From positions 992,001 through 1,056,000 of the forward strand of contig CM000207.1 of the NCBI GenBank assembly GCA_000002445.1: a DNA stretch of 64,000 bases, in the 5' to 3' direction. The translations under genes were made by a program, and so were the position numbers. The stretch is from Trypanosoma brucei. Taxonomy: Eukaryota. Numbering within the stretch: the stretch's first letter is position 1; every line of letters starts with the position of its first letter. The notes under the pieces were generated by a model. The model was given only the letters and a program-made list of their open reading frames with translations, made no database searches and had not been told where the DNA came from. Shown piece by piece: positions 205-22,921 of the stretch.

Positions 205-245
205 CGGTGGCCAATTTATATTTAACTTCTTCTTCATTTTGAGTG
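205..245 (+). promoter_or_regulatory. Polypyrimidine tract followed by an AG; candidate spliced-leader acceptor region upstream of transporter copy 1. Equivalent elements lie at about 2223-2263 and 4218-4258.
   Basis: The run ttaacttcttcttcattttgAG lies immediately 5' of the long pyrimidine-rich leader that precedes the ATG at 357. This is typical kinetoplastid trans-splicing signal architecture. Confidence 0.4.
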
Positions 246-356
246 CCTTATTTGCTGTCATCACTCTTTAATTTTATATTTGGGCTGATTCTTATAACCT
301 TGTCACTACTATTTATACATACCCTTGTATCTTACGTTAGATCACACTTCTTACCT

Positions 357-1796: not shown

Positions 1797-2374
1797 GTGG
1801 CATTGGTGAGGGAATGTTGTTTGTTGCTTTGTTGGTGTCGTGTCTGCAACTCATATTTGGGAATGCGTGGGATCAGGAGCGATTGCCATGGGTCTTTGCT
1901 TTGGAAAAGATCTCTTTTTTTTTTGTTGATTGCTTACTTGTACTACGTGTTGGTAGAACGGGCGCTTACGGGACTACATGCACTACTCCATATTTACCGC
2001 TGTTGGGTTTGCACAGGGAAATTAGTTTCGTGTCCCTCTCTTTCATTTTTAATTTTTTTTTACATCAACTTTGTTACGCTTGGTTCCTCAATTTTTGGGT
2101 TGGACTCACCACTCATTGTGATCGGCTACGTTGTGGTACCCGGTTTATTGACTCTCTGCCTCTAGTGGCACATTATTAACTGTACATGCCACCGTGCTTT
2201 TCGCCCTTATTTGCTCCCTTTACGGTGGCCAATTTATATTTAACTTCTTCTTCATTTTGAGTGCCTTATTTGCTGTCATCACTCTTTAATTTTATATTTG
2301 GGCTGATTCTTATAACCTTGTCACTACTATTTATACATACCCTTGTATCTTACGTTAGATCACACTTCTTACCT

Positions 2375-3787
2375 ATGAGCAGCACAGACAATGATATCGT
2401 TGAGGAGCCCCGCAGTTTCCGGAAGGAATTAGAGAACAGTAACGTTCGAAATGTGTTGTTGTTTGCATTCCTTAATGGTGCTGCGTCCTCCATATGGTCT
2501 TCCCAACCGTACCAGGTGATGGTCAGTCGCCTTGCAGGTGATACTGCAGTTGGTTGGGTATCCGCTGCCTCGGGGACCACCCAAAGTATTAGCGCATTGA
2601 TAGCTGGTGGTGTTCGCAATGTGCCCCGTCAAGTCATCTGCCGCCTCAGCGCCTTTTGTGGTTTGGTTGCTGTGATCATGTCAGTTTATGGTATTACAAC
2701 CCAAGATATCACTGTCATTCTTCTTGCTTCTGCGCTGTGGGGCATGTATGGAGGGATGGCGTTCACGGGGACTGAAGCGCTGTTTGCTGACAGTGTTGAA
2801 TCAGGAAAGCGCGGCTTCGTGTACAACCTGAAGTGGATCAATGAAACAACAAGCTCATGCGTTGGCTCCCTTATCCTGCTTATCATGACACTCTACCTTG
2901 GAAACGACTGGGATACAAATGTCTTGAAGATTCTCATGTATACCGGTCTTGCCGTTCACCCCACCGCTTTCTTTGCTTTACTCGGCATGAAAGACAAAAA
3001 CATTCTCCACGTTGATGATGGGTGTGAAGATTGCGAGCAATCCGCATCGGAAGCAAGCCAACGTCGACTGACTGATGGTGACTCATCAACCAAACCTTTA
3101 CTGGGAGGAACTAAGGATACAATCGAAGAGGAGAATGAGTCAAAAAAGTATCGTAAGTGCCTCTGTGGTCGGATAGCCTCCTTCTGGCAATGGCTCTTCA
3201 CTGTGTCAGCTTTACCGTATTTGGTTGCTGCAACCAATTTGATTGCTTTTATTGGTTCAGGAATGACAATGCAATACATTTCCCTTTATTTTATAAAAGA
3301 ACGTCATGTAACTCCTATTATGTTTTTCATTACAAACATTGCCTCCAATATCTGTATCGCGCTTTCTTCTACGATGGTGCGTTATCTCAGCGAGCATCAC
3401 CTTGATCGTGTGAGTGCCACCATACTCGTACGCACACTTAGTGCATCACTGTTGCTAACAATGGGTGTGATTGAACTTCCTCTTGTTGCGCTTCTACCGA
3501 TATATGTTTGCCGTAATGCTTTAATGAATTCCACCGCGGGAGTTACACGCAGTATCATTATGGACTGCGCTCGCAGGGAGAACCGTGCGATGTGGGCTGC
3601 ATTCGAGTGTTTTGTTTCTTTCATGTGGTCGGCAAGTTCTGTAATGGGCGGATACATTGCTAGTGCGAAGGGATATAAGTATACATTTGTCATCACTGCC
3701 CTAATTCACTTTATTGCTATGTTTGTATTGGTGCCGGCCATATCTGGTGTGCGGCAGTTGGATAGGCGCGGCAAGGTTTTGCGGTAA
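2375..3787 (+). CDS. MFS-like transporter, array copy 2 (type II, 470 aa; divergent patches and a different C-terminus ...QLDRRGKVLR).
   Basis: Same architecture as copy 1. It differs in discrete patches (NVLLFAFLNG, SGTTQSIS, ITVILLAS, loop TIEEENESKKYRKCLCGRIASF, LVAATNLIAFIGSGMTM) and in the last 8 codons. Confidence 0.8.
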   Translation: MSSTDNDIVEEPRSFRKELENSNVRNVLLFAFLNGAASSIWSSQPYQVMVSRLAGDTAVGWVSAASGTTQSISALIAGGVRNVPRQVICRLSAFCGLVAVIMSVYGITTQDITVILLASALWGMYGGMAFTGTEALFADSVESGKRGFVYNLKWINETTSSCVGSLILLIMTLYLGNDWDTNVLKILMYTGLAVHPTAFFALLGMKDKNILHVDDGCEDCEQSASEASQRRLTDGDSSTKPLLGGTKDTIEEENESKKYRKCLCGRIASFWQWLFTVSALPYLVAATNLIAFIGSGMTMQYISLYFIKERHVTPIMFFITNIASNICIALSSTMVRYLSEHHLDRVSATILVRTLSASLLLTMGVIELPLVALLPIYVCRNALMNSTAGVTRSIIMDCARRENRAMWAAFECFVSFMWSASSVMGGYIASAKGYKYTFVITALIHFIAMFVLVPAISGVRQLDRRGKVLR

Positions 3788-3980
3788 TTGAGTTTGTGTT
3801 GTTGGGATGGTTCAGTATTCTGCTGACCATTTGCTGTACGTTTGTGTTTTTGTCGACATAGTTTTTCGTTATGTGTAGTTTGCTGCAGGTTAGGAAGTTG
3901 AGTCATCTAGGAGAGCACGCATTTTGCCCGTATGTGGAATTGGTATCTTAATTGAGAATATAACGTCTCCAGTTGTGGGA

Positions 3981-4003
3981 TATATATATATATGTATATA
4001 TAT
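3981..4003. repeat. (TA)n microsatellite in the type-B spacer.
   Basis: tatatatatatatgtatatatat. Confidence 0.9.
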
Positions 4004-4369
4004 TCTACATGCATATCTAATTCACAAACAATGCGTCACCTTGAGGTGGCTGTTCACTACGAACTTTGTTACGCTTGGTTCCTCAATTTTTGGGTTGGAC
4101 TCACCACTCATTGTGATCGGCTACGTTGTGGTACCCGGTTTATTGACTCTCTGCCTCTAGTGGCACATTATTAACTGTACATGCCACCGTGCTTTTCGCC
4201 CTTATTTGCTCCCTTTACGGTGGCCAATTTATATTTAACTTCTTCTTCATTTTGAGTGCCTTATTTGCTGTCATCACTCTTTAATTTTATATTTGGGCTG
4301 ATTCTTATAACCTTGTCACTACTATTTATACATACCCTTGTATCTTACGTTAGATCACACTTCTTACCT

Positions 4370-5809
4370 ATGAGCAGCACAGACAATGATATCGTTGAGG
4401 AGCCCCGCAGTTTCCGGAAGGAATTAGAGAACAGTAACGTTAGGGGTGTGTTGTTGTTTGTATTCATTGATGGTGCTGCGTCCTCCATATGGTCTTCCCA
4501 ACCGTACCAGGTGATGGTCAGTCGCCTTGCAGGTGATACTGCAGTTGGTTGGGTATCCGCTGCCGCTGGAGTCGCACAAATCGTTGGCGCATTGATAGCT
4601 GGTGGTGTTCGCAATGTGCCCCGTCAAGTCATCTGCCGCCTCAGCGCCTTTTGTGGTTTGGTTGCTGTGATCATGTCAGTTTATGGTATTACAACCCAAG
4701 ATATAATGATATATTACTTTGCTTCTGCGCTGTGGGGCATGTATGGAGGGATGGCGTTCACGGGGACTGAAGCGCTGTTTGCTGACAGTGTTGAATCAGG
4801 AAAGCGCGGCTTCGTGTACAACCTGAAGTGGATCAATGAAACAACAAGCTCATGCGTTGGCTCCCTTATCCTGCTTATCATGACACTCTACCTTGGAAAC
4901 GACTGGGATACAAATGTCTTGAAGATTCTCATGTATACCGGTCTTGCCGTTCACCCCACCGCTTTCTTTGCTTTACTCGGCATGAAAGACAAAAACATTC
5001 TCCACGTTGATGATGGGTGTGAAGATTGCGAGCAATCCGCATCGGAAGCAAGCCAACGTCGACTGACTGATGGTGACTCATCAACCAAACCTTTACTGGG
5101 AGGAACTAAGGATATAATCGAAGAGGACGGCTGGGATGAAGAATCTGAGGAAGAGGAAAGAAATTGCTGTGACTACCTCTGTACTGGGGTCACATCCTCC
5201 TGGCAATGGCTCTTCACTGTGTCAGCTTTACCGTTTTTGCTCGCTTTGGGTAATTTGCTTATTTCCGTTGGCTCTGGAGTCACAATGCAATACATTTCCC
5301 TTTATTTTATAAAAGAACGTCACGTAACTCCTATTATGTTTTTCATTACAAACATTGCTGTCAATATCTGTATCGCGCTTTCTTCCACGATGGTGCGTTA
5401 TCTCAGCGAGCATCACCTTGATCGTGTGAGTGCCACCATACTCGTACGCACACTTAGTGCGTTTTTCATGCTAACAATGGGTGTGATTGAACTTCCTCTT
5501 GTTGCGCTTCTACCGATATATGTTTGCCGTAATGCTTTAATGAATTCCACCGCGGGAGTTACACGCAGTATCATTATGGACTGCGCTCGCAGGGAGAACC
5601 GTGCGATGTGGGCTGCATTCGAGTGTTTTGTTTCTTTCATGTGGTCGGCAAGTTCTGTAATGGGCGGATACATTGCTAGTGCGAAGGGATATAAGTATAC
5701 ATTTGTCATCACTGCCCTAATTCACTTTATTGCTATGTTTGTATTGGTGCCGGCCATATCTGGTGTGCGGCAGTTGGACAGACACGCAAAAGCGAAATCA
5801 CGAACTTGA
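4370..5809 (+). CDS. MFS-like transporter, array copy 3 (mosaic: 5' two-thirds identical to copy 1, internal patch shared with copy 2, 3' end like copy 1).
   Basis: Identical to copy 1 through about aa 290. It then reads LLALGNLLISVGSGVTMQYISLYFIKERHV (the TMQYISLYFIKERHV stretch matches copy 2), AVNICIAL and SAFFMLTM, and ends HAKAKSRT like copy 1. Confidence 0.8.
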   Translation: MSSTDNDIVEEPRSFRKELENSNVRGVLLFVFIDGAASSIWSSQPYQVMVSRLAGDTAVGWVSAAAGVAQIVGALIAGGVRNVPRQVICRLSAFCGLVAVIMSVYGITTQDIMIYYFASALWGMYGGMAFTGTEALFADSVESGKRGFVYNLKWINETTSSCVGSLILLIMTLYLGNDWDTNVLKILMYTGLAVHPTAFFALLGMKDKNILHVDDGCEDCEQSASEASQRRLTDGDSSTKPLLGGTKDIIEEDGWDEESEEEERNCCDYLCTGVTSSWQWLFTVSALPFLLALGNLLISVGSGVTMQYISLYFIKERHVTPIMFFITNIAVNICIALSSTMVRYLSEHHLDRVSATILVRTLSAFFMLTMGVIELPLVALLPIYVCRNALMNSTAGVTRSIIMDCARRENRAMWAAFECFVSFMWSASSVMGGYIASAKGYKYTFVITALIHFIAMFVLVPAISGVRQLDRHAKAKSRT

Positions 5810-7803: not shown

Positions 7804-9816
7804 ATGATTCTCCGGGGACGGTTAAGCGCTGCCCTAATACTTTCTAGTTACAGGACGGTAGTGACACCAATCGCTCCACCACACTACGTTCGTCGTCGAA
7901 TACGGGAAAGTATGGTTCGCCATGTTCTAACCGCAGCACAACCTTTGACAGTGAGTGATCTCATAGATCTTGTGCGAGGAACTTGTGATGTTGAAGGTTA
8001 CGCGTCAGCCCACCGTGAAGAACTAGGTGACGCCAGTTTTCCGAATTCATCATCTGATGAGCAACCCCCAACGCACGCGGTCGGGACAGAGAAAGAGAGG
8101 CAAGTTAGACATCTCACCAACTTTCTGGTAGCCAACACTCCCGAACAGGGTGACACTTCGTCATCATCATATAAGAAGCAATCAAACTACTTGATAGAAT
8201 CAACGGTTCGACTTCTGCTCGCCGTTGACCCCCAGTTTCGCGTTTCGGTGGGAGGGTATGTGTGCTACCCCAATTTGCCATCGATGATCATTGCATCAAC
8301 GAATGTTGAACGTAACGAATCATGGGTGCGGTCGATGCGCTCTCTTGTGCGGGCGGAGGAGGCCGCACATAGGACTACCGTGGACTGTAATGACAACAGA
8401 ACCACACGACGTATCGTCTCTGCACGAGCAGAAGAGGGTGCGCCCTCCCGGGGGTGGAGCTATATTGTAAGTCTTTGGTGCATGTTGGATCCCCTTTCGG
8501 AAACTCCGGAGGAAAATGATGTGGGGCGAAGGGATCTCAAGCAAGATACACAATGCTCTAAAAGAAACGCGAGTCGCGGGGGGGGCTCCTTCTCCGAACA
8601 CCTTGCCGAGCTCTGGATTAAAACATATGACTCGAAGGAACTGCCCCCTCTTTTATGTGGAGGCTCACCGACGGGTGGTTGGCCTGGGGCTCGTCCTTGC
8701 GAGTTCCGTGAGTGTACTGAGGGAAACGATGCGCTTCGACGCTGGTGCGCCGAGACGCGTGAGGGATATGTGAACGACTTACTCTTGGCGAAGGCAGTTC
8801 TCGCGCCAGCGGCGAGGACGCTTTTGCAACAGGTTAATTTTCACATGGCGTATTTGTTCAACCTCATTGTAGGTGTGCCTATTACATTGGGGCGGTTGTC
8901 AGCCCTTGTGCAGTGGGAAAGCCATCCGTTTGCAATGCACTACCGCTCGTTTCTTCATTTCGTCGTTCTGTTTACTGGTTGCTCTGCAGTCCTGCAAATG
9001 GAGCGCTATGAAATGCGACGGCGAGAGGTGCAAAAACGGTGGAGAAGTTTGCTATGGGTTCAGGTGCACGAGGAGTGGGAGCGCCAGCGGCAACAGCAGC
9101 TGGTGGGCCGTTTTGCCTCGCGCACTCTCGTAGATGAGGCACACGCTAATACACGTACCGGGCAGGTTGAAGCGGCTGTGGCGAATGTAAGTGGCACTAG
9201 TGACGATTATGGTGATATAGGTGGTACTCCGAGAGTTTCTCTGGGCGCAGAGCATTACCGATTCTGGGTAACCGGCACTAGTGGCCCATCTGTGAGTCCG
9301 AAGTTTGCGGACGTGTGTCGATGTGTTTTCCTTATGCCGTCGGCGGGTATGGCACCGGTGGACGTGACAACGCGAAGTCCCTCTGAGGTGATGGACGACC
9401 TTGCGGCTATGGAGCAACGAAACGGTGAAGAAAAGGGAGGCACGGTGAATGATATCGTCGTGTTTGCTGCTACTCCCTTTGTGCTCGAGCAGCGAATATG
9501 TCGTCTTGTAAGACTGTGGTGGTTACTTGAGGGACAGCGCACATCTCAAGACCGCACGAATGATGTTGTTATTACTATACGGCGGCTCTCCCAGCTTTGT
9601 TTGTGGGAACACGAGTACGGCAATCCAGCTGCGTCACGCATGATGCTCCACTACCTTCAATCTTTCGAATATACAGAGGGCGTCATAAAGCTGGTGCCAC
9701 CACCTGAACAGTCAGTGACAAAGCCTGATAGTGTTGACACTGCCGGGCAGTGGTTGGTAGTTGTTTCTCGGGCAAAGAAGACGGGAAAGAAGAGCGCGGA
9801 AATTGATGGTTCTTGA
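7804..9816 (+). CDS. Hypothetical protein, 670 aa.
   Basis: Long ATG-initiated ORF on the + strand with no competing frame. No motif recognised. Confidence 0.6.
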   Translation: MILRGRLSAALILSSYRTVVTPIAPPHYVRRRIRESMVRHVLTAAQPLTVSDLIDLVRGTCDVEGYASAHREELGDASFPNSSSDEQPPTHAVGTEKERQVRHLTNFLVANTPEQGDTSSSSYKKQSNYLIESTVRLLLAVDPQFRVSVGGYVCYPNLPSMIIASTNVERNESWVRSMRSLVRAEEAAHRTTVDCNDNRTTRRIVSARAEEGAPSRGWSYIVSLWCMLDPLSETPEENDVGRRDLKQDTQCSKRNASRGGGSFSEHLAELWIKTYDSKELPPLLCGGSPTGGWPGARPCEFRECTEGNDALRRWCAETREGYVNDLLLAKAVLAPAARTLLQQVNFHMAYLFNLIVGVPITLGRLSALVQWESHPFAMHYRSFLHFVVLFTGCSAVLQMERYEMRRREVQKRWRSLLWVQVHEEWERQRQQQLVGRFASRTLVDEAHANTRTGQVEAAVANVSGTSDDYGDIGGTPRVSLGAEHYRFWVTGTSGPSVSPKFADVCRCVFLMPSAGMAPVDVTTRSPSEVMDDLAAMEQRNGEEKGGTVNDIVVFAATPFVLEQRICRLVRLWWLLEGQRTSQDRTNDVVITIRRLSQLCLWEHEYGNPAASRMMLHYLQSFEYTEGVIKLVPPPEQSVTKPDSVDTAGQWLVVVSRAKKTGKKSAEIDGS

Positions 9817-10742: not shown

Positions 10743-11657
10743 ATGGTAGGCTCCAGCTTTTCCTCACGGCACGAAAGGCGAGATATGTCCCCTTATAGTA
10801 CACGGGAAAATTTGGAGGCCGCACCGGTCCCACAACGGTGGTCGCTGCTGTTTGTACACAGACATATGTGGCGCACAAAGCGTAGGAAAGTGGAAGAAAA
10901 TAATGTGGGAGGCCTGCACTTGACACCATCCCTTGAGTTGGAGGAGATAACGGATGACGGTGATGTATGTTTACGGTGTTCGCAAGAGGAAGGGACCGAA
11001 AGGGACAATAGTAGCGAGAATGAACGGAGCTCTTCACCTGTGCCGGTACCACTCAATTCTGTTAACCCTCAGTTTCGACAAGCGGACGGAGCTGCACTGC
11101 CCGACGGTGACGTCGATACTTTGGGAATTTTACCGTCGCTGGCGCACCCAGTGGTGTTAGGGAAAGCCTTGGATGCTATTGAACTTGTGGCAAAGCATGT
11201 ACAACATCTACACTGCACGAAATGCCCGCTTTGCGGGCCGCCGAAGCCGCCAACTTGGTGGTCCACCCCGCGCGCAAGAAGGCGTCTGAGAAGGGAGGAT
11301 AACCAAGTTGGGATACGCAGCAGAGCTGACTGGGAAGCCGGGGAAACCTCACACAACAAAGAAAATATCTCTTCACCGTCATCTTTGATCGGAGCAGTAC
11401 CACAGCGCAGAACGGTAGCGGCGTCTAACACTTGCTGTAGTCACAAAGATGATGTGCGGCGCGCACACGTCCTTTCCAAAGCTGAAGAATTTCTTCAACA
11501 CATATATGACAGACGGAACCGGTTAATCGCGTCGCGGCCACTGATGTACGCTGTACCTGCCGAATCCCATGTGCTTTGGCGGGAGTGCTCCCAACTTGGT
11601 GGGGTTGCACTACTGGAGGCACTTCTTCTGGGGTTCACATCACAGGAAGTAACGTAA
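10743..11657 (+). CDS. Hypothetical protein, 304 aa.
   Basis: ATG-initiated + strand ORF within the gene cluster. Contains a CxxC...CxxC-like stretch (HCTKCPLCGPP). Otherwise unrecognised. Confidence 0.45.
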   Translation: MVGSSFSSRHERRDMSPYSTRENLEAAPVPQRWSLLFVHRHMWRTKRRKVEENNVGGLHLTPSLELEEITDDGDVCLRCSQEEGTERDNSSENERSSSPVPVPLNSVNPQFRQADGAALPDGDVDTLGILPSLAHPVVLGKALDAIELVAKHVQHLHCTKCPLCGPPKPPTWWSTPRARRRLRREDNQVGIRSRADWEAGETSHNKENISSPSSLIGAVPQRRTVAASNTCCSHKDDVRRAHVLSKAEEFLQHIYDRRNRLIASRPLMYAVPAESHVLWRECSQLGGVALLEALLLGFTSQEVT

Positions 11658-12068
11658 TACATATATACGTCGAGGGCAGCATGCCTTGTGAAACTCATGA
11701 CTGGTGCCATATTCCTGCATCTCTCTTTCTGCCACTTTCATAACTGATGGCACTATGAGCATCGTCTTTTTTCATCACATTCAGCTTCTGTGCTGCCTTT
11801 TAGTGTGTCCACTCAATTTTTTTGAATTCATTTTGCGCTGTTCTGGGCCTTTACGGATAGTAAGTTAAATTCAGTGACTAAGGTAAACCCTACAGGGAGC
11901 TTGTTTATCATTTATTTATCTTACTACACCAGTTTATACAGGCTCATACACACTTTCTCTCCACCTTCCTTATTTCTTTGTTAATTTCCCCACCGAGCTA
12001 TATACTCCGCAGCATAAAGTGTCAGGTTCAAATAGCTGCCAGTTTTTGGCGTCTGTGGAAAGCGAACG

Positions 12069-14990
12069 ATGAAGTCATCTGATCATGACGAAGAGGGCTT
12101 AGTCGATTTATTTGCCGCGGGTGACGAAGTAGAACCCGAATACACAATTGAACAAATGATTATCGATCGCCAGGAGTTGAGTCGTGAAGGGGAGACAGCT
12201 TGTGGCTTCACTCCGCTTTTCGACCGCTTTGACAATCCGACAAAGCGTGAGGAAGGTGTGGAGACGTCCCCCAAGTTGCCTTTGCGGCCGATGCAAGTGT
12301 ACTTCCGCAATAAGCGACACAGCCTTTGGGGTCATAAACTATGGAACGCGGCACGTTATTTTGTAAAGCGGATAGACAGCGGTATGATCGATGTGCGCGG
12401 GAAAACTGTGTTGGAACTGGGGGCGGGACTTGGTGTACCATCTCTCGCAGCATTCCGCAACGGCGCACGGTGCGTTGTAGTGACGGACTATCCGGACGAG
12501 TCGCTGATGGAGATATTGAGAATGAATACAGAAACGAATTGTACGCTGGACCAATTGGACCCAACTGCCGCAGAGTTTCTTAGGCAGGAAGCGGTTCGGT
12601 TGAAATCTGCGTATATGTCTGTTCACAAAGGGCAGGAAACAGGGAAGGGTGATGATCGGGAAGGAAAAGGTGTTCCATTGAATTCGCGGTGTGTCGTTCA
12701 GCCTCTACTGTGGGGTAACACTGATCATATTCGTGAAGCCCTCAAGCACACCAGTGGCACGGGCTTTGACGTGCTATTACTCTCCGACATTCTCTTTAAC
12801 CATGTTTGTAACGATGACCTCGCGGGTACTGTTGTTCAGTTACTTCAACGTAGTCCAAAAGCGGCGGCGTACTGTGCCTTCTCCCACCACCGCGCGCACA
12901 AACAGGTGGAAGACTTGATGTTCTTTGATATATGTGCATCACGCGGCCTTTTGTGCGAGCAGATTGATGAGGAGGATTACCCTCTCATGTTCCCCGACGA
13001 CCGTGGCCCGGAGGAGATACGGCGGCCGGTGAAGGTGTATAAGTTGTCACATCGGTTTGATGCGGCAGGTGTGCCGCTGGAGCCGGGGCAGGAAACGTAT
13101 GATGTGGTAGTGCAGGGCACGGGCATGGTGGAGTGCTTTCTTGCCGCTGCACTTGCACGCAGTGGGGTGCGTGTGTTACAATGCGATGCCCAAGGTGAAT
13201 ATGGCGGACCGTTCAAAACACTGACGGTTCAACAGTTGCGAAAATATATTCTACAATCGCCCAACGACTCAGGTGATGAATCAAGCCCATCTGATGTCTA
13301 CGCAGGTGGGAGCCAGCAGGTTAGTAGCAGGGGAAGTGATAAAGATCCGAGTGGTGTTGGGAACAATAACGGCAATGGGGACGAAAACACCTCGATCATA
13401 TCGGTGGATTTGATGGATACACTCGATGTCCGAACGCAGCATCGCTTTCTGCTTGACCTCCTCCCTGTACACTACTTCTCTAAGGGTGATACCGTTCGAA
13501 AGTTTGTGGAGTCGGACATGGCGCGGCATGCTGAATTTCAATGTTGCAGTAGTTTTGCCTTTTTGTTTCGGTGTGGTGAGACTGACGAAAGCTGTGCATT
13601 CCGACTGCAAAGCGTTCCGCTGACGCGGGCACAAGTATTCTCTGCTGATCATATTGGGCTGATGCAAAAGCGTCGTTTAATGAAATTTGTGAAGGATGTG
13701 GCTGCCCCACTCGCCGAACACCTGCATGCCCGGACAGCTGCTCTGGGTGAGGAAGAGCCCGGGCACACCGACGTGCAAGAGGTAGGAGAGCTTTTCCAGC
13801 AAGAGGTTTCCCAACATCCCAACGAAACACTTAGCGAGTTGCTGCGCCGGAAGTACGCTGTTGATGAGACGACATTAAATATTGTGACGCTTCTGGGGCA
13901 GTTGGAGACCTCATCTGAACCCTGTATGCTGCGCGCTGTAGACCTGGTGCGCCAAGTATTAACATCTATTGGGGCTTACGGGGGTTCAACACCTTTTCTT
14001 GTGCCTTTGTATGGCGCCTCAGAGGTACCACAAAACATGTGTCGTATCGCGGCCGTGTGGAATGCTGTGTTCGTGTTACGTCGGAGTGTAAGCCGTGTCT
14101 TGAAGGGTCTTGATACACCGACGGTGGAAATGAGCAACCGACAACATGTGAAGGCTAAAGTTGTGGTCGTACCCCGTGCGTTGGCCTCCAAGTTCGCTTC
14201 GGTGTCTGGCGCAAATGATGCTAATGATGAGAATATAACACGTTTCTCTCGGGTTGTCATCGTAGCTAAGAAACCGCTGGTGACGTGGAAAGCGCTATCT
14301 TCCTCCGGGTGCTGTGAAGAAGAGGTAACCACAGCAACTGAAAGTTTGGAGGGAACGGCCAAGACATCTAGCGTAGAGGGGATCCCGCCGTTGGTGTTCG
14401 CGCTGTGCCAGGCTCAACCCGGTGTGGTCGTCCATGTTCAACAGCAAAGCGCATCGTCCGAACAGGCGCCCAAAGAAGGCAATGCCGTTGTCGTGCATTT
14501 CACTGTAAACAACTGCCAAATGAGCGCCAAGCAACTGCACAGATTCGTCGAGGAGTCCTTCATAGCATCTGCTGCTTCAGCTGGTGAAGACTGTGTTGTG
14601 CTGGATAAAGATGCAATACTCTTTTTCGCTTCCTTCGTACTGGATGAACGAGAGGAAGCACTCCGTGGGGTTGCCCATGGCGCCTGGGATTTCCTGGCTA
14701 GTGAAACGGAGAAAGCCCATCCCTTTGCTGTGGAGGAGTATCGCAAACGCCAGAAAAAAAGCAAATGCGATTTAGTCGAATTCGATGATGACGGCGTGCT
14801 AATTGTTCCAGTGCCCACGCTCCTACAGAATCTTATGGACGATGGAGCCTACCTGAAGGAAGCGCAGCAGGCGTATGAGACCGTGGTGGCACGACTTCAG
14901 ATGCAGATGAAGGAGGAGGAGGGGGGTGACAAAACCAAACAATACGTGTTTCTCGAGCCCCTACCACCCGTTTCCTCAGTAAGTTCCTGA
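12069..14990 (+). CDS. Fusion protein: N-terminal class-I SAM-dependent protein-lysine methyltransferase (Nnt1/Efm7/Methyltransf_16-like) joined to C-terminal Rab escort protein (REP, Rab GGTase component A; GDI/REP family).
   Basis: MTase motif I/post-I: VLELGAGLGVPSLAAFRNGARCVVVTDYPDESLM. REP/GDI dinucleotide-binding SCR1: YDVVVQGTGMVECFLAAALARSGVRVLQCDAQGEYGG. SCR2-like: RFLLDLLPVHYFSKGDTVRKFVESDMARHAEFQ ... VPLTRAQVFSADHIGLMQKRRLMKFVKDVA. SCR3-like: TPFLVPLYGASEVPQNMCRIAAVWNAVFVL. There is an insert between SCR1 and SCR2, and the C-terminal part is about 630 aa, as in REP rather than GDI. It is one uninterrupted 973-codon frame. Confidence 0.8.
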   Translation: MKSSDHDEEGLVDLFAAGDEVEPEYTIEQMIIDRQELSREGETACGFTPLFDRFDNPTKREEGVETSPKLPLRPMQVYFRNKRHSLWGHKLWNAARYFVKRIDSGMIDVRGKTVLELGAGLGVPSLAAFRNGARCVVVTDYPDESLMEILRMNTETNCTLDQLDPTAAEFLRQEAVRLKSAYMSVHKGQETGKGDDREGKGVPLNSRCVVQPLLWGNTDHIREALKHTSGTGFDVLLLSDILFNHVCNDDLAGTVVQLLQRSPKAAAYCAFSHHRAHKQVEDLMFFDICASRGLLCEQIDEEDYPLMFPDDRGPEEIRRPVKVYKLSHRFDAAGVPLEPGQETYDVVVQGTGMVECFLAAALARSGVRVLQCDAQGEYGGPFKTLTVQQLRKYILQSPNDSGDESSPSDVYAGGSQQVSSRGSDKDPSGVGNNNGNGDENTSIISVDLMDTLDVRTQHRFLLDLLPVHYFSKGDTVRKFVESDMARHAEFQCCSSFAFLFRCGETDESCAFRLQSVPLTRAQVFSADHIGLMQKRRLMKFVKDVAAPLAEHLHARTAALGEEEPGHTDVQEVGELFQQEVSQHPNETLSELLRRKYAVDETTLNIVTLLGQLETSSEPCMLRAVDLVRQVLTSIGAYGGSTPFLVPLYGASEVPQNMCRIAAVWNAVFVLRRSVSRVLKGLDTPTVEMSNRQHVKAKVVVVPRALASKFASVSGANDANDENITRFSRVVIVAKKPLVTWKALSSSGCCEEEVTTATESLEGTAKTSSVEGIPPLVFALCQAQPGVVVHVQQQSASSEQAPKEGNAVVVHFTVNNCQMSAKQLHRFVEESFIASAASAGEDCVVLDKDAILFFASFVLDEREEALRGVAHGAWDFLASETEKAHPFAVEEYRKRQKKSKCDLVEFDDDGVLIVPVPTLLQNLMDDGAYLKEAQQAYETVVARLQMQMKEEEGGDKTKQYVFLEPLPPVSSVSS

Positions 14991-15277: not shown

Positions 15278-15724
15278 ATGTGTCTGCGCGCGTGCACACA
15301 AGAACGTAATCTCTGCCGTATTCCCTGTGCTTCATGGATGCTTTACCTCCTGTTTCTTCTCACATTTATGTGTCCATTACCCATCTGCAATCAAGCAACC
15401 AATTTGACTGAGGAATTAAATTTGCTACACTGTAGCGATTGGTTTGTGTACGCGTATGCGCTTAGGGATATGTTATACGACCGCAGCATAGCGAGGGTTT
15501 TCCTCGTTTTGACAACGCTTTTGTATGTTTACTACGTTGTGTGGATCGGTGTTACACCCTTTATTGTGTCGTCCCACTTCACGCAAAATTTTTTTCCTCC
15601 CCGTGAGTATGGCATATTCGTTGCTGCTGCTGTGATGACGCTTATGCTGGGCGTCACTGTCACGTTGGCGTCTGTACGAACCATATTGTGGGCCGGGGCG
15701 GTGGGTCCGGAGGAAAGCGGGTGA
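15278..15724 (+). CDS. Small multi-pass membrane protein, possibly PIG-P-like (GPI-GlcNAc transferase subunit P). The start could instead be the ATG at 15338.
   Basis: Two long hydrophobic segments (VFLVLTTLLYVYYVVWIGVTPFIV and EYGIFVAAAVMTLMLGVTVTLASV) flank a ...FPPREYG... element. This resembles the PIG-P pattern (...YWPQKYWAVALPVYLL...). The similarity was judged by eye only. Confidence 0.3.
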   Translation: MCLRACTQERNLCRIPCASWMLYLLFLLTFMCPLPICNQATNLTEELNLLHCSDWFVYAYALRDMLYDRSIARVFLVLTTLLYVYYVVWIGVTPFIVSSHFTQNFFPPREYGIFVAAAVMTLMLGVTVTLASVRTILWAGAVGPEESG

Positions 15725-16340
15725 AATGAGGTTTGATTGAAAGGGTTGTTTGCTTTGTGTGGTGGTACGCATGCACCTATTTGAACTAATAGCGGGGTAA
15801 ATAGGTGGGTGTACTTCTGTTGCCTGAACTCCCAGTGCCGTTTTACTACACGGTCTTTATTGTTGCTATTATTGCTATTGTTCACTTCCGCGCACTGCAT
15901 GTTGTTGCTTCATGAGGGGGGGGGTGGCATTTGGTAGTGCAGCGTGGTTTGCTGGAGTTGTGGTGACACGATTATATTTGCACGGTTTCTGGTACTGCTT
16001 TATCTGTTAGGTCTTTCCTTTCTTTGCATTATCTTATTTTCGTGTACCCTGCTGCTGTTTGTTGGGTTTTACTTCCTAACCAAATGGGCTGTTTCTTGAA
16101 ACTTTGTCTGTGCACTTCTCCCGCACGCACTGCTCTGATCTGACTGTAAAATTCTGCTCCGACGTGTGGTTCCCAGGACCGTGAAATAAACCAGATTACA
16201 TACGCATATACCTAACGGTGATTGTACGCCATTTGGCACAGCAGACAAGTAACGCTTTTAAAAGGTGCAGCGGGGTGGTAGGTATTTTAACAAAGAAGAA
16301 ACGAGAACACGGCATCAAACATACTTGTGTCACCTGCTTA

Positions 16341-17702
16341 ATGGTGTCCCGGGTATTCAGTGCGTATGCGGAGTGGGTCCGTAGGAACGCCGACAATGTG
16401 GCCTCCATGGAGCGGTTTACGCACATGCTCACGATTATCCTTATGAGCCCTAACAACATGTTAAAACACGAGATAGGGAACACCATCGTTAACATACAGA
16501 ACTTCTCTAACCACGCTATCATTTCTTCTGCTGGAAGAAAACTAAGTGTTGCGGAGCAGATATCTATTGTAGGACAAATTATTCGGAAAGCGGAATGCCT
16601 ACTTGAGTTACTACTACGCCGTTACCGAGGACATAGGACAGCATGGAACTTCTTGTTGATTCTGCAGCTCCTGAAGTGCTTCCTAAACCTGGTTGCGCAC
16701 CAACAAATGTGTCTTCTGCCTTCCATATGGCAAGCTTTGCGACGCCAGCTCCGGCGCCTTATCACGTTTCCAAAAAAACTACTCGGGCCATCAGGTGTAT
16801 CGAGTGGTAACTCTGGTGCCGCCTTATCCAATTTACCCCAGAGCAGTCAAGCAGCGGAACGGACTACACCACTCGTTATTCCACGTGTGGTTGCCACCCG
16901 TATGTTCAGGGACCGGAGTTCCGAAGCTGTGGGTGACGATGCCGATTTCTCTCAAGCTGGAAAGGGCAGTAACAGCGGCGGGGGTAATCCCGATGTGTTG
17001 CCATGCACGGCGTATGATGTGCTGGGTGCTGTTGTGGATTTTTTGTTGTTGTTGCGCCCACTCTTTTTGTTGTACTGCGCCCGGTCTGCGTTCCCGACTA
17101 CAGCTATGGATGCTTGCTCCCAAATAGCCTCAGAGGTAGAAGACACAACCCTCGATGATGGCCCACGGGATAGCAATGTTACCGACAAAAAGTCCGATTA
17201 CGGCAGCTTCTTTTCTGTGAAGTCGTTGATAGCAGATGGTCTCAAGGAATCGCTTCTAGGAAATTGGAGTATCTGGACCCTTTTCTTAGGTCTAGATGTG
17301 ATTTTTGCAGCCTTGGCTCGTTACATTTTCCATTACCGTAAGCCCATTGTGTGCATCAACAGGGATGCTAGAAACTACAGCGGCGTCGGCAGTAATGGTG
17401 GTAGGCAAATTGCACATGACGGCGAAGTGCCATCTCCGGAGTTGAGTGGCGTCAATTCAGCGGCAGAGCCCGACACCGTCGTCTCCCGTGACAGCCTCCG
17501 CGTGCAACAAACGATGCATAATTTAGTTTGCTGTTTCCTTCGTGATCCTTTCTTCGGTTCTGTGCTGCGGAGGTTCATTTACGACAACTTCATTGTCGGA
17601 CGAATTAACGGTATACCACTGGTGGGATCACTCCTCGCGCTGCATGTTGCCTCTTTCCTCTGCAGGCAACACTACTCGTTCATGTACTCTATCGGAGAGT
17701 GA
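16341..17702 (+). CDS. Hypothetical protein of about 453 aa.
   Basis: + strand ORF trimmed to its first ATG (the track starts at a GTG at 16218). No recognised domain. Confidence 0.45.
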   Translation: MVSRVFSAYAEWVRRNADNVASMERFTHMLTIILMSPNNMLKHEIGNTIVNIQNFSNHAIISSAGRKLSVAEQISIVGQIIRKAECLLELLLRRYRGHRTAWNFLLILQLLKCFLNLVAHQQMCLLPSIWQALRRQLRRLITFPKKLLGPSGVSSGNSGAALSNLPQSSQAAERTTPLVIPRVVATRMFRDRSSEAVGDDADFSQAGKGSNSGGGNPDVLPCTAYDVLGAVVDFLLLLRPLFLLYCARSAFPTTAMDACSQIASEVEDTTLDDGPRDSNVTDKKSDYGSFFSVKSLIADGLKESLLGNWSIWTLFLGLDVIFAALARYIFHYRKPIVCINRDARNYSGVGSNGGRQIAHDGEVPSPELSGVNSAAEPDTVVSRDSLRVQQTMHNLVCCFLRDPFFGSVLRRFIYDNFIVGRINGIPLVGSLLALHVASFLCRQHYSFMYSIGE

Positions 17703-18358: not shown

Positions 18359-21300
18359 ATGATCGCTGCGGGCAATGAAAGCGCAATGCCAGAAACTGCG
18401 GAGGAACGCGTGGTGGAAGCAGTGCGTGCATTTCACAGTGATTTGTGCAGCGGGTTAACGGCTCGGGCAATTCACGAGTCTTCGAGCAACGCCACGGTTG
18501 CACTGCAACAGCTCACCGAGCTGCATAGCCGCACAGTGGAAGACTTGAACGACCAGATTGACAGACTCCAGAAGCAACTATTTGAAGCAGTTGAAGTTAT
18601 TGAAAAACTTGGAGCCCAATTCGCTAGAAACGAGGACGAAAAGTCGACAGATGACCAACGTTCTTTTACTGTTGATGTTTTAAGCATCTCCCATGGACTG
18701 GAAACCGAAGTGGAGGTAGGTCAGCAAAATACTGAACACGCGTGCGAACGGGGTAGGGAATACCGACCGTCCAGAGAAGAGTTGTCGTCGGACGCATTCG
18801 CCACTGCTAAAAGTGGTAGCAGCCTCAGGGACACTGGTGTAATGGATGACGAAACAGCGGATCCCTCTCTTCTTAGAGACTTGTGGCGTGGACGCAGGAC
18901 ACTGCAGCAACAACAACAGCAGACTTGGCTTGTGGACCAGATCAAGGACCTGACATCACTTCTGGAGAAGGTGGTGAAGGAAAACGCTGTGTACAGACGG
19001 GAGTTAAAGCTACTCCATGCCACGTCGGTCCCTCTCGAGGAACACAAGAAGTTGCTTGAAGAGCGAGACAGGCTTCTCCACGACTGCAGTAGTATGAGGA
19101 TTGAACTTCAGCGTCTACATGAAGAGGTAGAGGCAACGTTTGACTCCGCGCATGGAGCACACCGGCGGCAACGAGATTTTGTAAGCAGTTGTGCAACTGC
19201 GAGTAGTCTTTCTGAATACAAGGGGGAGGGTTCATTCCCGCTACAAATGCGAGAGCCAGAAGGGCTGGTGCATTCACTGACTACACCGCTCGAAGGAGGG
19301 GAGAGTAATGACCCAGATGCCCAATTCGCTGGCGGTTGCCACTCCGGGTTCGATGATGGTGCTCTTCTTCACACTGGACTCTGGAAAACGGCCATGCGGG
19401 AGCTTGAGCAGCAGGCGGCACTCGCAGCTTCTCAGCTCTCAGCCGCTGGCCGGCTGCGCGAGTTAGACGATCGTGTCGCAGAGCTGACGAGGGAACTGGA
19501 TGAACTACGCGCCTCGTACAAGGAACTCGCGGCAGAGGATAAGTGTGTTCGTGAAGATTGTGAGCAACTAACGTTCCGTAATGCTGTTCTGTCGCAGCAA
19601 GTAGCGTCACTACTTGTGCGGGTGGAGCGGCAATGCCGCAGCATACATCGGCTGTCGCGGCAACACGATGAACAGAAAGAGGAAATAGAAACGCTGTCCG
19701 AATCGGAAGAACTTACCGATCGCGGAAGGGATGTGGGAAAAGTTCGGCACCGTGCGGACCGGGGTCGCACTGCCGCAGCTGCGCGAGCACTGCTCGAGCG
19801 GCGGAGCGCCGTGATGGGCCAGTCGCCGCTCCCCTCAACCCCCACAGCGGGGAGAGGAACGGGTTGTGGTGTTAGTCATGTTCTTGATGTAATGTTGCCT
19901 CAACTAGAGCCTCTGCAAGTTGAGGGTGGGCTTCGCTCAGCTGTTGGTGTGTTTGCCCGGGGACCTCGCCGGTCGGTGCACCTTCGGAACCTCGGTTCAC
20001 CTCCGGTCACCCTTGAGAACACGCAACCCCCAAGGCTCCCACCATGCGAGGAACTAAGCGGTGTAGCCCTTGGACGGCCCTCCGGATACGCAACTGTTTA
20101 TCCTTCCCAACTGAAGGGCCAGACAGGTCCCAGCAGTGTGAACAGCAAGGGCTCTTTTTATTCAGAGACTTCAGCAGCATCCGGACTAGTCGTTAGCGAG
20201 GACGAGGAAGAGAACAAGCGATTTGTTGAACTTTTGCGTGAGGACGAGAATCTGGAACGGTTCTCCATCAATTCTGTGAAGGACTTACTAAAGCGCAACC
20301 AGGAACTGTTGAAGCAACTGTATATAATGACACAGCGCGCAGATAGCGTCCCCAAGCAGAATTCAAGTGAGGTTGCGGCCGAGGAAGGAGAAAAGAGCCG
20401 CAGCACCTCAGATACAGAAGCAGCAGTGCCACTGCAAAGAAGTAACCGCAAGCGGCGGAGAGAAAGCACATCATTTTCTGGCGAGGAAGTTAGGGAGCAG
20501 AGTGGGAAGCTGCAGAGGTCATGTGAAGAAGTGGGATCTCCGGACCAAGCGGTAAGCGACTCGTATGTGCAGTTGGAGCGACACGTCCACGAGCATATTG
20601 ATGCAGTGCTAAGAAGCCATGAGGCGCAGTTAACCCTCACGGACAAGGGGCTGGCGTCATCGCTCATTCACGTAATCGAGCTAGGTCGGGAGTTCAATAC
20701 AAGTGCTGGAAACAAGCACTTTGAAAACTGGGTGGATGTCACTGCTAAGGATAACATCATTACCTCTCTCGTTAGGCTATGTTTGCAACAGGGAATCCGT
20801 GCTGCAGATCAGGCTATTGCACTTGCTGCGGCGCAGCAATCGATCGATATACCCTCAATGAAGGATTGTTGGTGCGAGGCCCAGCGTGTACTGAAACAAT
20901 CCGCCAGGGAACTTCAATCCGCCGCCTCCCAACTTCAGCGGGACAACCCTGCAATAACGGTGGTGGAGGGAATAAGCAGTGCGTCTGTAAGTGCATCTGA
21001 AAAAGAAGCGGATGAGGCGCAGCTGTTGCAGAGCATCACACAACTTCTGCGAACAGCTTCTCTGAGAGAACATACTGTTCAGCGTGTACTAAGATTGGCA
21101 GCGCGGCGTATGCGTGCAACACGGCGAGCCTGCGACGTTTCTAAATCCGCGCCGTTGCAGCCGTGCGAAGACACACAGGAACAATGTGACCAGCCGGCCA
21201 GGGACAAAACCAATGAGACGCATGATGTCCCGTTCGGTGATACTGACGATGACTGGGACAGCGACAGTGACGGTGACGATGGGCCTCGCCAGCTTCGATT

Positions 21301-22921
21301 ACAAGTTGATGCAGCACATGCTCAGTATCAGAAATTGCTGGCGGCACACCATGAGGAACGAAAGCAACACACTGTACTACTAGACAGAATGTGGCGTCTT
21401 GAGGAAGAGATGGTTGCCGCCAGGCGTCAGCGGGAGGAGGCACTAGAAAGTATGGCAACGATGATGAAACGTGAAGACTACGAGGCAACAGTTGCCGCAC
21501 TAGACAATGCAAACGCGACGGTGGAGATGTTGGAAGAACGTGTGAAGCAGCAGAGTGCAGTCCAAGGGCTCCAGCAACAAGAGCTGGAGCGCTGCAAGCA
21601 GGAACGCGAGGAGGATGTGCGTCGTCACGCCGAAGAAGCCGCACAGAGGGCTGCTCAGTTTGCCCACAAGGATGAAATCATAGCGCATTACGCGTCGCAG
21701 CAACAGCAGTTGGAGCAGCGCATCAGTGACTTGCAGACGGCAAACCACCAACTGGAGGCGCAGGTACAACAAGGACAATGCGTGATCAATGCGAAGGAAG
21801 AGGAGGTGACAGAGTTACAGAAAAAACTGTGCCGGGCAGAACTTGCGCTGCTAGAGCAGGAATGCACACAAGGGCTGCTTCTCACCATGTTTCCTGGTGA
21901 TGAATTCCTCGAAAAGAACAGTAACCTCATTCACGAGCAAAGACGTGAGAAGGAAGACTTGACGCAACAGGTGGCTTTGCTGAAGGTAGAGCTTGACACT
22001 GCCCGTCAAGACATGACGGAGCAGCGACTACAGCTACAGCAGGCAGTGCAGATGCGACAGGAGGCGGAACTGCTTCTTCAAGAGTTGGTTCTGGGACATA
22101 AAAGAACAGTTGAGGATCCTTTAGACGCGTCGAGCACACAAACCTCTTGTGCGGCCATGGCCTCTGAAACATACCGAGCGGAACTCGAGTCATTGCGGCG
22201 TGCTAATGCATTACTTTTAGTAGAAAAACAGGGGTGGGAAGAGCGGGAGGAACTCCTTCGAAGGCAACTCGACGCGTTGGGTCGTAACCCGGTCAGCGAA
22301 ACTGCCCGGCGCTACGGGTTGCAGGGAACACAGTCATTTGAGGAGCAACTTGAGCAAATGCAAGTGCGTTGTGCCGAGTTGCAACAAAAGCTTGAAGAAG
22401 CGGAGGCTCTTCGGATCACGCTGAAGGAACTGACGGAGGAAAAGGTCCATTTGGCCTCCCAACTGGATGAGTTACAAACCGTTCTCTCCGAGCAGCGAGA
22501 AACTAACAAAGCCCTCGAGAGGGAGATAAAGAAGGTCCATGAACGACTTGTGGAGAAGGAGGAGTCACACGATGCGGTGAAGATAACACTGGCAGAAAAG
22601 GAAGAAATGATCAACAACATCAGCGATGCGATTCGCTCACTGGAGGCTCAAATTAAGAATTTGGACAGGTCTGTGAGCGAAACGGAAAAGGAACGAGACA
22701 AGCTGCTGCAAGATAATGTGAAACTTATTGAAAGTGTGAAAGCGCTAACGGAGGCTGTGAAAAAGAAGGAGGCGGAGCGGAAGGCGGCTCAAGCGGCGTT
22801 GGCACAAGGACTGGCAAGTGCTTCTGCCTCGTCTCAACGACGAAGAGGTCGCACTTCCGGTGGGGCAGGTGGTCCCACTCCCGTTTCCATTACTGGCTCG
22901 CTTGGATTGAAGCCATCGTAG
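18359..22921 (+). CDS. Large coiled-coil protein, 1520 aa (cytoskeletal, flagellar or tether-like architecture).
   Basis: Long stretches of heptad-like E/K/L/Q/R-rich sequence (for example LEEHKKLLEERDRLLHDCSSMRIELQRLHEEVEA and the 21300-22800 region full of EELER.../QLEAQ.../LKELTEEKVHLASQLDELQ), interrupted by S/P-rich linkers. ATG-initiated. Confidence 0.75.
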   Translation: MIAAGNESAMPETAEERVVEAVRAFHSDLCSGLTARAIHESSSNATVALQQLTELHSRTVEDLNDQIDRLQKQLFEAVEVIEKLGAQFARNEDEKSTDDQRSFTVDVLSISHGLETEVEVGQQNTEHACERGREYRPSREELSSDAFATAKSGSSLRDTGVMDDETADPSLLRDLWRGRRTLQQQQQQTWLVDQIKDLTSLLEKVVKENAVYRRELKLLHATSVPLEEHKKLLEERDRLLHDCSSMRIELQRLHEEVEATFDSAHGAHRRQRDFVSSCATASSLSEYKGEGSFPLQMREPEGLVHSLTTPLEGGESNDPDAQFAGGCHSGFDDGALLHTGLWKTAMRELEQQAALAASQLSAAGRLRELDDRVAELTRELDELRASYKELAAEDKCVREDCEQLTFRNAVLSQQVASLLVRVERQCRSIHRLSRQHDEQKEEIETLSESEELTDRGRDVGKVRHRADRGRTAAAARALLERRSAVMGQSPLPSTPTAGRGTGCGVSHVLDVMLPQLEPLQVEGGLRSAVGVFARGPRRSVHLRNLGSPPVTLENTQPPRLPPCEELSGVALGRPSGYATVYPSQLKGQTGPSSVNSKGSFYSETSAASGLVVSEDEEENKRFVELLREDENLERFSINSVKDLLKRNQELLKQLYIMTQRADSVPKQNSSEVAAEEGEKSRSTSDTEAAVPLQRSNRKRRRESTSFSGEEVREQSGKLQRSCEEVGSPDQAVSDSYVQLERHVHEHIDAVLRSHEAQLTLTDKGLASSLIHVIELGREFNTSAGNKHFENWVDVTAKDNIITSLVRLCLQQGIRAADQAIALAAAQQSIDIPSMKDCWCEAQRVLKQSARELQSAASQLQRDNPAITVVEGISSASVSASEKEADEAQLLQSITQLLRTASLREHTVQRVLRLAARRMRATRRACDVSKSAPLQPCEDTQEQCDQPARDKTNETHDVPFGDTDDDWDSDSDGDDGPRQLRLQVDAAHAQYQKLLAAHHEERKQHTVLLDRMWRLEEEMVAARRQREEALESMATMMKREDYEATVAALDNANATVEMLEERVKQQSAVQGLQQQELERCKQEREEDVRRHAEEAAQRAAQFAHKDEIIAHYASQQQQLEQRISDLQTANHQLEAQVQQGQCVINAKEEEVTELQKKLCRAELALLEQECTQGLLLTMFPGDEFLEKNSNLIHEQRREKEDLTQQVALLKVELDTARQDMTEQRLQLQQAVQMRQEAELLLQELVLGHKRTVEDPLDASSTQTSCAAMASETYRAELESLRRANALLLVEKQGWEEREELLRRQLDALGRNPVSETARRYGLQGTQSFEEQLEQMQVRCAELQQKLEEAEALRITLKELTEEKVHLASQLDELQTVLSEQRETNKALEREIKKVHERLVEKEESHDAVKITLAEKEEMINNISDAIRSLEAQIKNLDRSVSETEKERDKLLQDNVKLIESVKALTEAVKKKEAERKAAQAALAQGLASASASSQRRRGRTSGGAGGPTPVSITGSLGLKPS

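Follow-up and report, generated by a model that had tools for sequence, protein, structure and literature searches.

Predicted Efm7-type methyltransferase and Rab escort protein modules in a single open reading frame of Trypanosoma brucei and other Kinetoplastea

Rab escort proteins (REPs) are obligatory chaperones for the prenylation of all Rab GTPases and hence for membrane trafficking. No described REP, including REP-1/CHM (PDB 1vg0, 1ltx) and yeast Mrs6, bears an N-terminal enzyme domain. Yeast Efm7 (Nnt1, YLR285W) is a stand-alone protein of ~250-270 amino acids (aa), which methylates the N-terminus (Gly2/Lys3) of the translation factor eEF1A (PMC6109062). When a stretch of 64,000 nucleotides (nt) of Trypanosoma brucei DNA (GCA_000002445.1, contig CM000207.1, positions 992,001 to 1,056,000; hereafter the window) was analyzed, one open reading frame (ORF) of the + strand (window positions 12069-14990, stop codon included) was found to encode both kinds of protein, so that the kinetoplastid fusion, unlike the described REPs, does bear an enzyme domain. 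Its likeness to Efm7 consists of a whole-length alignment to the Schizosaccharomyces japonicus protein and of all seven Efm7 signature blocks. However, the methyltransferase forms here the N-terminal third of a protein of 973 aa, contains an insertion of ~50 residues, and has an activity and a substrate that are predicted from its sequence. With REP-1 and Mrs6 the C-terminal part shares REP-1 as the best match, the conserved regions and the equivalents of residues F279 and R290, whereas identity to REP-1 is low (about 17 % in structural alignment) and the insert, although placed as in REP-1, is short and lineage-variable. All features given below lie on the + strand.

The protozoan DHFR-TS is a clade-wide bifunctional fusion that resembles this gene in that two complete proteins are joined end to end and are inherited across a whole clade. 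The two activities of DHFR-TS belong to the same pathway and channelling has been proposed, whereas we know of no pathway link between eEF1A methylation and Rab prenylation. Human METTL13 (eEF1A-KNMT) is also a multi-module protein with eEF1A N-terminal methyltransferase activity, its two methyltransferase domains serving the eEF1A N-terminus and Lys55 (PMC6109062). However, the sequence is unrelated to Efm7, and the partner module is a second methyltransferase and not a trafficking chaperone. In the enzyme-prozyme system of trypanosome PRMT1, a dead methyltransferase fold is kept for a structural role (PMC10908127), which is comparable to three eroded members of the present family (P0177, P0180 and P0182, see below). 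The PRMT1 prozyme and enzyme are separate hetero-oligomerising polypeptides, whereas the eroded N-terminal modules are covalently fused to an unrelated protein and the T. brucei module looks active.

A 2007 study of how the Rab prenylation complex has gained and lost domains took in the REPs of T. brucei and T. cruzi, and its account of REP mentions no N-terminal enzyme domain (PMC1994686). Nor is a methyltransferase on a kinetoplastid REP described in what a study of the Leishmania prenylation pathway (PMC4654808) and PMC2943070 say about REP. In the full-text literature searched, which leaves most subscription papers outside, no paper on a methyltransferase carried by a kinetoplastid REP was found, and this absence is not proof. 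The preliminary description of the window, made from the DNA letters, had stated that this is not a known architecture. The statement stands insofar as no paper describing the fusion was found, but it fails for the databases, in which GenBank names and precomputed Pfam assignments already carry both domains. Records are named 'Putative methyltransferase/GDP dissociation inhibitor' in L. donovani and 'Lysine methyltransferase/GDP dissociation inhibitor' in Lotmaria, and the T. vivax name likewise includes both domains; precomputed Pfam assigns both domains to all of these. The fusion is a real, ancient and clade-defining architecture that is annotated but apparently unstudied.

In the ORF listing of the window, the 973-aa frame at 12069-14990 runs from ATG to stop with zero internal stops; the coordinates agree with those proposed in the preliminary description for a single ORF with both modules. 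The product is 99 % identical to a T. b. equiperdum protein of 975 aa (P0001, 'Rab geranylgeranyl transferase component A'). Because of this identity, the window can be assigned to the T. brucei group, which bears out the kinetoplastid origin supposed earlier. Eighteen of the 19 window ORFs with at least 250 aa are on the + strand, as is typical of a kinetoplastid directional gene cluster. On balance, we favour the reading that this is a genuine bifunctional gene, which arose by one ancient fusion, was inherited vertically and encodes a canonical REP and an active Efm7, with the N-terminal module (N-module) also being a structural part of the protein.

When Pfam was applied to the whole protein and to its halves separately, both domains exceeded the curated cutoffs. 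Methyltransf_16 (PF10294) scored 39.8 bits with the whole protein and 43.7 bits with the N-terminal half (cutoff 21), and GDI (GDP dissociation inhibitor; PF00996) scored 79-81 bits (cutoff 23). The first module (aa 76-330; 12294-13058) is a complete Efm7/Nnt1-type class I, family-16 methyltransferase dependent on S-adenosylmethionine (SAM), as judged from PF10294, BLASTP, the structure match 3bzb and its motifs. A complete core at residues about 80-330 had been claimed before. In BLASTP the N-terminal half showed 34 % identity to S. japonicus Efm7 (P0195; E 1e-40; query 83-327, subject 51-252 of 253), and its functionally named best stand-alone matches were all Efm7/Nnt1 (E 1e-34 to 1e-27). 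The best solved-structure match is an uncharacterised methyltransferase of Cyanidioschyzon (PDB 3bzb; E 4e-23 / 1e-24). A METTL21-type identity was also considered and rejected, as METTL21A/B matched at E 1e-5 compared with 1e-24 to 1e-40 for the Efm7-type relatives.

Seven Efm7 signature blocks were tabulated (HSLWG, ExGxGxG, TDYP, LWG, SDxxFNH, HHR and MFxxDxG). The window-type protein and stand-alone Efm7 have all of them, as do 14 divergent fusion lineages, except that two blocks are altered or absent in the Perkinsela-type P0307 and P0183 and that P0174 has no HHR. Blocks outside the SAM site (HSLWG-LWNA, FSHHR, DLxFF and MFxxDxG...R...V) are shared by the window protein with the Efm7 proteins of S. 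japonicus, Hebeloma and Planoprotostelium. In an alignment of 14 fusion sequences (31-65 % identity), most residues of the signature blocks are invariant. SAM-binding motif I, ELGAGLG (aa 116-122; 12414-12434, codons read), has E116, L117, G118, G120, L121 and G122 invariant, and so are most residues of the acidic Post-I loop TDYPD (aa 139-143) that follows it. The methyltransferase string quoted in the preliminary description, VLELGAGLGVPSLAAFRNGARCVVVTDYPD, is located at aa 114-143. The hallmark of family 16 is the motif (D/E)xx(F/Y) (PMC7743719); in the window protein it is present as D240-I-L-F243 within the substrate-pocket motif SDILFNH (aa 239-245; 12783-12803), of which S239, D240, F243, N244 and H245 are invariant.

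Among intact fusions, identity to the window protein is 43-72 % in the methyltransferase half and 27-64 % in the REP half. The stronger conservation of the methyltransferase half points to purifying selection on the enzyme. From these sequence features, the N-module is most likely a catalytically active SAM-dependent methyltransferase, and by analogy its substrate is most likely that of its orthologs, the eEF1A N-terminus (Gly2/Lys3). We take eEF1A rather than a Rab as the default substrate because every Efm7-specific motif is kept. In Giardia, N-terminal trimethylation of a GKEK-type eEF1A was reported together with an Efm7-like candidate enzyme (PMC7743719).

The second module (aa 344-973; 13098-14987) is a full-length REP that starts at the natural beta1/dinucleotide-fold beginning of the family (PF00996, REP-1 alignment and Foldseek). 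The claim of a full-length REP/GDI-family protein in the same frame is therefore upheld, with the GDI domain above its cutoff and REP-1 as the best match by both sequence and fold; the string quoted for it, YDVVVQGTGMVECF...YGG, maps to aa 344-380. Against solved structures, rat REP-1 (1vg0/1ltx) gave E 5e-24 and yeast GDI E 3e-18 by sequence, and Foldseek gave E 1.5e-26 for REP-1 (template modelling score 0.67-0.73) and 2.5e-22 for GDI. The next non-kinetoplastid match to the C-terminal half is the REP of Pelomyxa. The helix segment VPLTRAQVFSADHIGLMQKRRLMKF (aa 516-540; 13614-13688) contains F524 and R535, which correspond to rat REP-1 F279 and R290 (HMMER residue mapping), and P517, R520, F524, R535, R536 and M538 are invariant in 14 fusions. 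F279 and R290 contact the alpha subunit of Rab geranylgeranyltransferase (RabGGTase) and give REP its affinity for that enzyme (PMC2943070). REP-1 thus ranks above GDI in both comparisons; with the F279/R290 equivalents invariant as well, the module is by these measures a REP rather than a GDI. The RAE1/2 domain I C-terminal region (PF22603) stayed under its cutoff of 27 in the window protein (E 0.019-0.044; 14.5-15.6 bits), and the match is stronger in the ortholog P0174 (E 5e-5).

Stand-alone Efm7 proteins (P0195 of S. japonicus, P0055 of Hebeloma and P0137 of Planoprotostelium) end at the window sequence '...RPVKVYKLSHR' (aa ~327-330). Query residue 343 pairs with residue 8 of rat REP-1 in the HMMER alignment, at the DVVVQGTG beta1 motif, and the codon of Y344 was read at nt 13098-13100. 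As Efm7 ends at about aa 330 and REP begins at its natural N-terminus some 13 residues on, the arrangement is an end-to-end fusion of complete proteins and not a domain insertion. The linker in between (aa 331-343, FDAAGVPLEPGQET; 13059-13097) is short, has a partly conserved 'FD-AG-P' pattern and is modelled as ordered; in the AlphaFold2 model of the window protein, the predicted local distance difference test (pLDDT) is 81-92 over aa 321-350, linker included.

An exhaustive HMMER profile search covered 1.84 billion cluster representatives (50 %-identity clusters), of which about 22 span the junction, and these include every kinetoplastid lineage sampled. Scores fall from 378 to 266 bits under the fusion-related matches, and ordinary stand-alone REPs and Efm7s are found at ~200 bits. 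No stand-alone kinetoplastid REP or Efm7 was detected at kinetoplastid-level similarity in this search. When the N- and C-terminal halves were searched separately, the kinetoplastid matches were only fusions or fragments, although the word-index prefilter limits the weight of this result. By sequence, then, no REP or Efm7 other than the fusion is detectable in the clade. The preliminary description had left it to be checked whether methyltransferase and REP are separate genes elsewhere in kinetoplastids; they are fused in all lineages sampled, and no separate genes were detected. The frame is continuous in T. congolense, T. cruzi, T. rangeli, T. conorhini, many Leishmania, Leptomonas, Lotmaria, Novymonas and Porcisia. 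Proteins spanning the junction were also found in Prokinetoplastina, which is the other subclass of Kinetoplastea (NCBI taxonomy placement): Perkinsela sp. (KNH04932.1, P0307; annotated just as 'Rab escort protein'), Apiculatamorpha spiralis and Papus ankaliazontas. In the last two, both modules are on single assembled (Trinity) transcripts (EukProt). Environmental bodonid-like members are on compact co-directional gene arrays.

Rough neighbour-joining (NJ) trees of the two halves, rooted with stand-alone outgroups, agree with each other: Prokinetoplastina are basal, followed by a grade of bodonid-like environmental sequences and then by the trypanosomatids. The agreement is consistent with one fusion event and vertical descent thereafter. 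The Perkinsela-type fusions P0307 (KNH04932.1) and P0183 are only 692-698 aa long, lack MFxxDxG and have HHV in place of HHR; both of their halves are on long branches, which we read as a reduced version in an endosymbiont lineage.

AlphaFold2, run with the 14-sequence alignment, gave a mean pLDDT of 76.7 and a predicted template modelling score (pTM) of 0.78 for the window protein. The bodonid-like P0025 (40 % identical) reached a pLDDT of 80.7 and a pTM of 0.81 with a confident junction. If modules of ~330 and ~630 residues tumbled freely, with ~16 % disorder in addition, the pTM should be capped lower, and a defined inter-module arrangement is thus predicted. The models suggest that the two modules pack together.

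The favoured reading can be put as a sequence of events. A complete Efm7/Nnt1-type gene and a REP gene would have been fused end to end a single time, no later than in the last common ancestor of Kinetoplastea. Most plausibly the two genes were neighbours in a polycistron and the processing region between them was lost, after which the fusion would have become entrenched through packing of the modules against one another. The REP module would be expected to act canonically: it would bind newly made GDP-Rab, hand it over to the alpha/beta heterodimer of RabGGTase by means of the helix with F524 and R535, and escort the geranylgeranylated Rab to membranes. The N-module would methylate the eEF1A N-terminus (Gly2/Lys3), as yeast Efm7 does. 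The short ordered linker and the predicted packing indicate that it is probably also a structural part of the kinetoplastid REP.

Three environmental fusions bear on both the enzyme and the structural role. P0177 (898 aa; L006:234-2930), P0180 (1314 aa; L007:983-4927) and P0182 (1180 aa) keep an alignable N-module of similar length, in which Methyltransf_16 was not detected by Pfam. All seven Efm7 motifs are lost in them; P0177, for example, has 'QLQAASAAPG' for ELGAGLGVPS. In NJ trees, P0177 groups with the intact P0034 and P0180 with the intact P0173. Identity is lower in the N-module than in the REP module (36.5 % vs 46.1 % for P0177/P0034 and 38.6 % vs 59.3 % for P0180/P0173), which is the reverse of the intact proteins. 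The contigs of the three and their intact sisters come from different samples. Judged by these sequences, catalysis was lost two or three times, or in paralogs, and the module was kept. Retention of the module after loss of the motifs argues that REP can function without the methylation, and it hints at a structural role that the N-module fold has taken on.

Functional coupling of the modules was considered as an alternative, and we regard it as unlikely. Here the methyltransferase would act on REP cargo, or REP would recruit the methyltransferase substrate; the N-module could methylate Rab GTPases, RabGGTase or REP itself, or the Rab-binding platform could dock the G-domain of eEF1A. The fusion persists across all Kinetoplastea, and the short, conserved, ordered linker together with the high whole-chain pTM suggests, at the level of the models, a fixed geometry. 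Moreover, gene fusions often join functionally related proteins, and eEF1A and Rabs are both GTPases. However, the Efm7-specific motifs, also those outside the SAM site, are the same as in stand-alone Efm7 and give no sign of a substrate switch, and the three lineages without catalysis keep REP and N-module, so that REP works without methylation. Efm7 is not known to be linked to Rab prenylation, and the literature searched yielded no report of such a link. Persistence and apparent rigidity of the fusion are the whole of the positive support for coupling.

A broader proposal, which we likewise consider doubtful, is that the Efm7 module is integral to REP. It would methylate a component of the prenylation cycle or tie eEF1A and translation to Rab maturation, and its fold would be indispensable for REP stability or RabGGTase engagement. 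An indispensable fold would explain why the N-module is retained in lineages without catalysis.

It is very improbable that the N-module of T. brucei is itself a catalytically dead scaffold and that REP function alone matters. Pseudo-methyltransferase versions do exist in the related lineages described above, and trypanosomes keep dead paralogs as 'prozymes', for example in PRMT1 (PMC10908127). Nevertheless, motif I for SAM, the acidic TDYP loop and the DxxF pocket motif are preserved in the window protein, as they are in the 14 tabulated lineages with intact motifs, and most of their residues are invariant in the 14-sequence alignment. The REP half is the faster-evolving one here, whereas in true pseudo-forms it is the N-module.

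We also analyzed whether the continuous ORF might yield two proteins, be it by trans-splicing at a cryptic site within it, by translation that starts internally or by cleavage of the linker after translation. Kinetoplastid genes are transcribed as polycistronic precursors that are matured by trans-splicing downstream of a polypyrimidine tract, and alternative trans-splice sites are widely used. The window was scanned for tracts that reach 12 nt or more and lie no farther than 400 nt upstream of a long ORF. Such a tract was present upstream in 17 of the 19 long ORFs, and non-coding sequence had 5.1 tracts per kb, compared with 1.0 per kb for coding sequence. The sole tract of this kind upstream of the fusion ATG is 27 nt long (11953-11979) and, by analogy, likely represents the trans-splicing signal of the fusion mRNA. 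No tract of at least 12 nt was found from 12069 to 13557, so that the nearest tract is more than 450 nt from the junction (~13059-13097) in either direction. The preliminary description had noted that neither a stop codon, a polypyrimidine tract nor a spacer separates the modules, and this agrees with the continuous frame and with the absence of a tract from 12069 to 13557. M307 is located upstream of the junction and could be cited for internal initiation, but it is part of an Efm7 motif that is also found in stand-alone Efm7. The first methionine past the junction is M352, in the essential beta1-helix motif, and an internally initiated REP would be truncated. The linker is modelled as ordered, and separate expression would not preserve the frame continuity that is kept in about 22 divergent lineages. 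Two separate products have a very small probability in our judgement. The earlier reading of one polypeptide gains support from the ~22 cluster representatives, the prokinetoplastid transcripts, the agreeing trees and the ordered linker; a single mRNA and polypeptide would accordingly be expected in T. brucei from sequence.

An origin of the read-through from faulty assembly or sequencing, or from a model that merges neighbouring genes, has a negligible probability. A truncated 402-aa T. vivax model and possibly merged fungal Efm7 records (589-708 aa) show that artefacts occur in the family, and there is no other point for it. However, more than 20 species with independent assemblies, and transcriptomes as well, show the same frame, and the residues of the junction are conserved. 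Sequencing error, which the preliminary description had named as a possible cause, was ruled out by this comparison.

Several points weigh against the preferred reading of one anciently fused, bifunctional gene with an active and structural N-module. Contrary to a rigid junction, the linker is 20-45 residues longer in P0031, P0033 and P0036, and this expansion in some lineages means that the junction is not uniformly tight. The pTM and the linker pLDDT are the sole basis of the predicted packing, and both AlphaFold models share most alignment rows, which makes P0025 only a partial control. The NJ trees are without bootstrap support. The top stand-alone REP and Efm7 matches include nematodes and fungi, and none was identified as diplonemid or euglenid. 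The transcripts that carry both modules come from two prokinetoplastids and not from T. brucei. As to the enzyme, the Perkinsela-type fusions lack the C-terminal Efm7 motif, and the eEF1A substrate is extrapolated by analogy from yeast Efm7. The kinetoplastid eEF1A presumably begins with MGKEK. N-terminal methylation of T. brucei eEF1A was not reported in the literature searched, where the papers found cover ethanolamine phosphoglycerol (EPG) modification.

The only REP detectable in trypanosomes and Leishmania is joined to a methyltransferase that is apparently active and has no counterpart in host REPs. Should the N-module be required structurally or functionally, it would offer a parasite-specific handle on an essential pathway and would constitute an unusual natural link between a translation-factor modifier and the vesicle-trafficking machinery. 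If the module proved integral to REP as set out above, a clade-specific mechanism would operate in an essential pathway of major human pathogens. Even with independent activities, the likely eEF1A N-terminal methyltransferase of kinetoplastids would be identified. The fusion can serve as a clean synapomorphy-type marker of Kinetoplastea, and its eroded variants represent a natural experiment on how a fused enzyme domain turns into a structural dependency. The two-module reading also corrects the annotations 'Rab geranylgeranyl transferase component A', 'Rab escort protein' and 'hypothetical'. The interest is mainly for specialists in kinetoplastid cell biology and Rab prenylation.

Three further features of the protein were mapped. 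The N-terminal leader (aa 1-75; 12069-12293) is partly disordered and has an acidic 'GDLF' motif common to stand-alone Efm7. F15, G41 and P49 are nearly invariant in alignments, and the start of fungal Efm7 is similar. The pLDDT of the leader is below 50 at aa 1-21 and 53-68, and a confident strand is modelled at aa 27-32. A lineage-specific insertion of ~50 residues lies inside the methyltransferase (aa 157-205; 12537-12683) and is modelled as a helix (aa 165-187) followed by a disordered loop. The alignments place it in Trypanosoma and Leishmania-type proteins; stand-alone Efm7 and several of the bodonid-like and prokinetoplastid fusions lack it or have a much shorter one. The REP module contains a disordered low-complexity insert between the first and second REP conserved regions (aa 398-440; 13260-13388; pLDDT below 50 at aa 401-436), which falls within the REP-1 insert in the alignment. 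The preliminary description had listed a REP-type insert. A disordered stretch does occupy the position of the rat REP-1 insert, but it is short (~40 residues in the window protein), varies between lineages and is absent or nearly so in bodonid-like homologs. The insert is variable among REPs according to Rasteiro and Pereira-Leal 2007 (PMC1994686).

The expanded linkers of P0031, P0033, P0035 and P0036 (loci L004:6001-9285 and L002:925-3888) are mostly proline- and serine-rich. Two records are truncated fusions that end shortly past the junction, P0053 (T. vivax, 402 aa) and P0054 (454 aa, on a contig of 1590 bp); they are probably assembly or gene-model breaks and not stand-alone methyltransferases. 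The fungal 'Efm7' records P0038-P0042 (589-746 aa) have extra Pfam domains, such as glycoside hydrolase 16, and may be other Efm7 fusions or merged gene models.

On the 3' side of the fusion gene are DPM2 (dolichol-phosphate-mannose regulatory subunit; 15470-15724) and Pex16 (16218-17702). The order fusion, DPM2, Pex16 is common to the window and two distant bodonid-like environmental contigs (L004:9784-10044; L005:8516-9211). Long ORFs of the + strand around the fusion gene (7804-9816, 10743-11657, 18359-22921, 25858-27960 and 29910-32975) gave no Pfam match at the thresholds applied and probably encode kinetoplastid-specific proteins. At 243-1796, 2261-3787 and 4256-5809 there are three near-identical tandem ORFs of 508-517 aa with weak Major Facilitator Superfamily matches under the Pfam cutoff. 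Their upstream polypyrimidine tracts have identical spacing, and the region (243-5809) was read as a tandem array of transporter genes.

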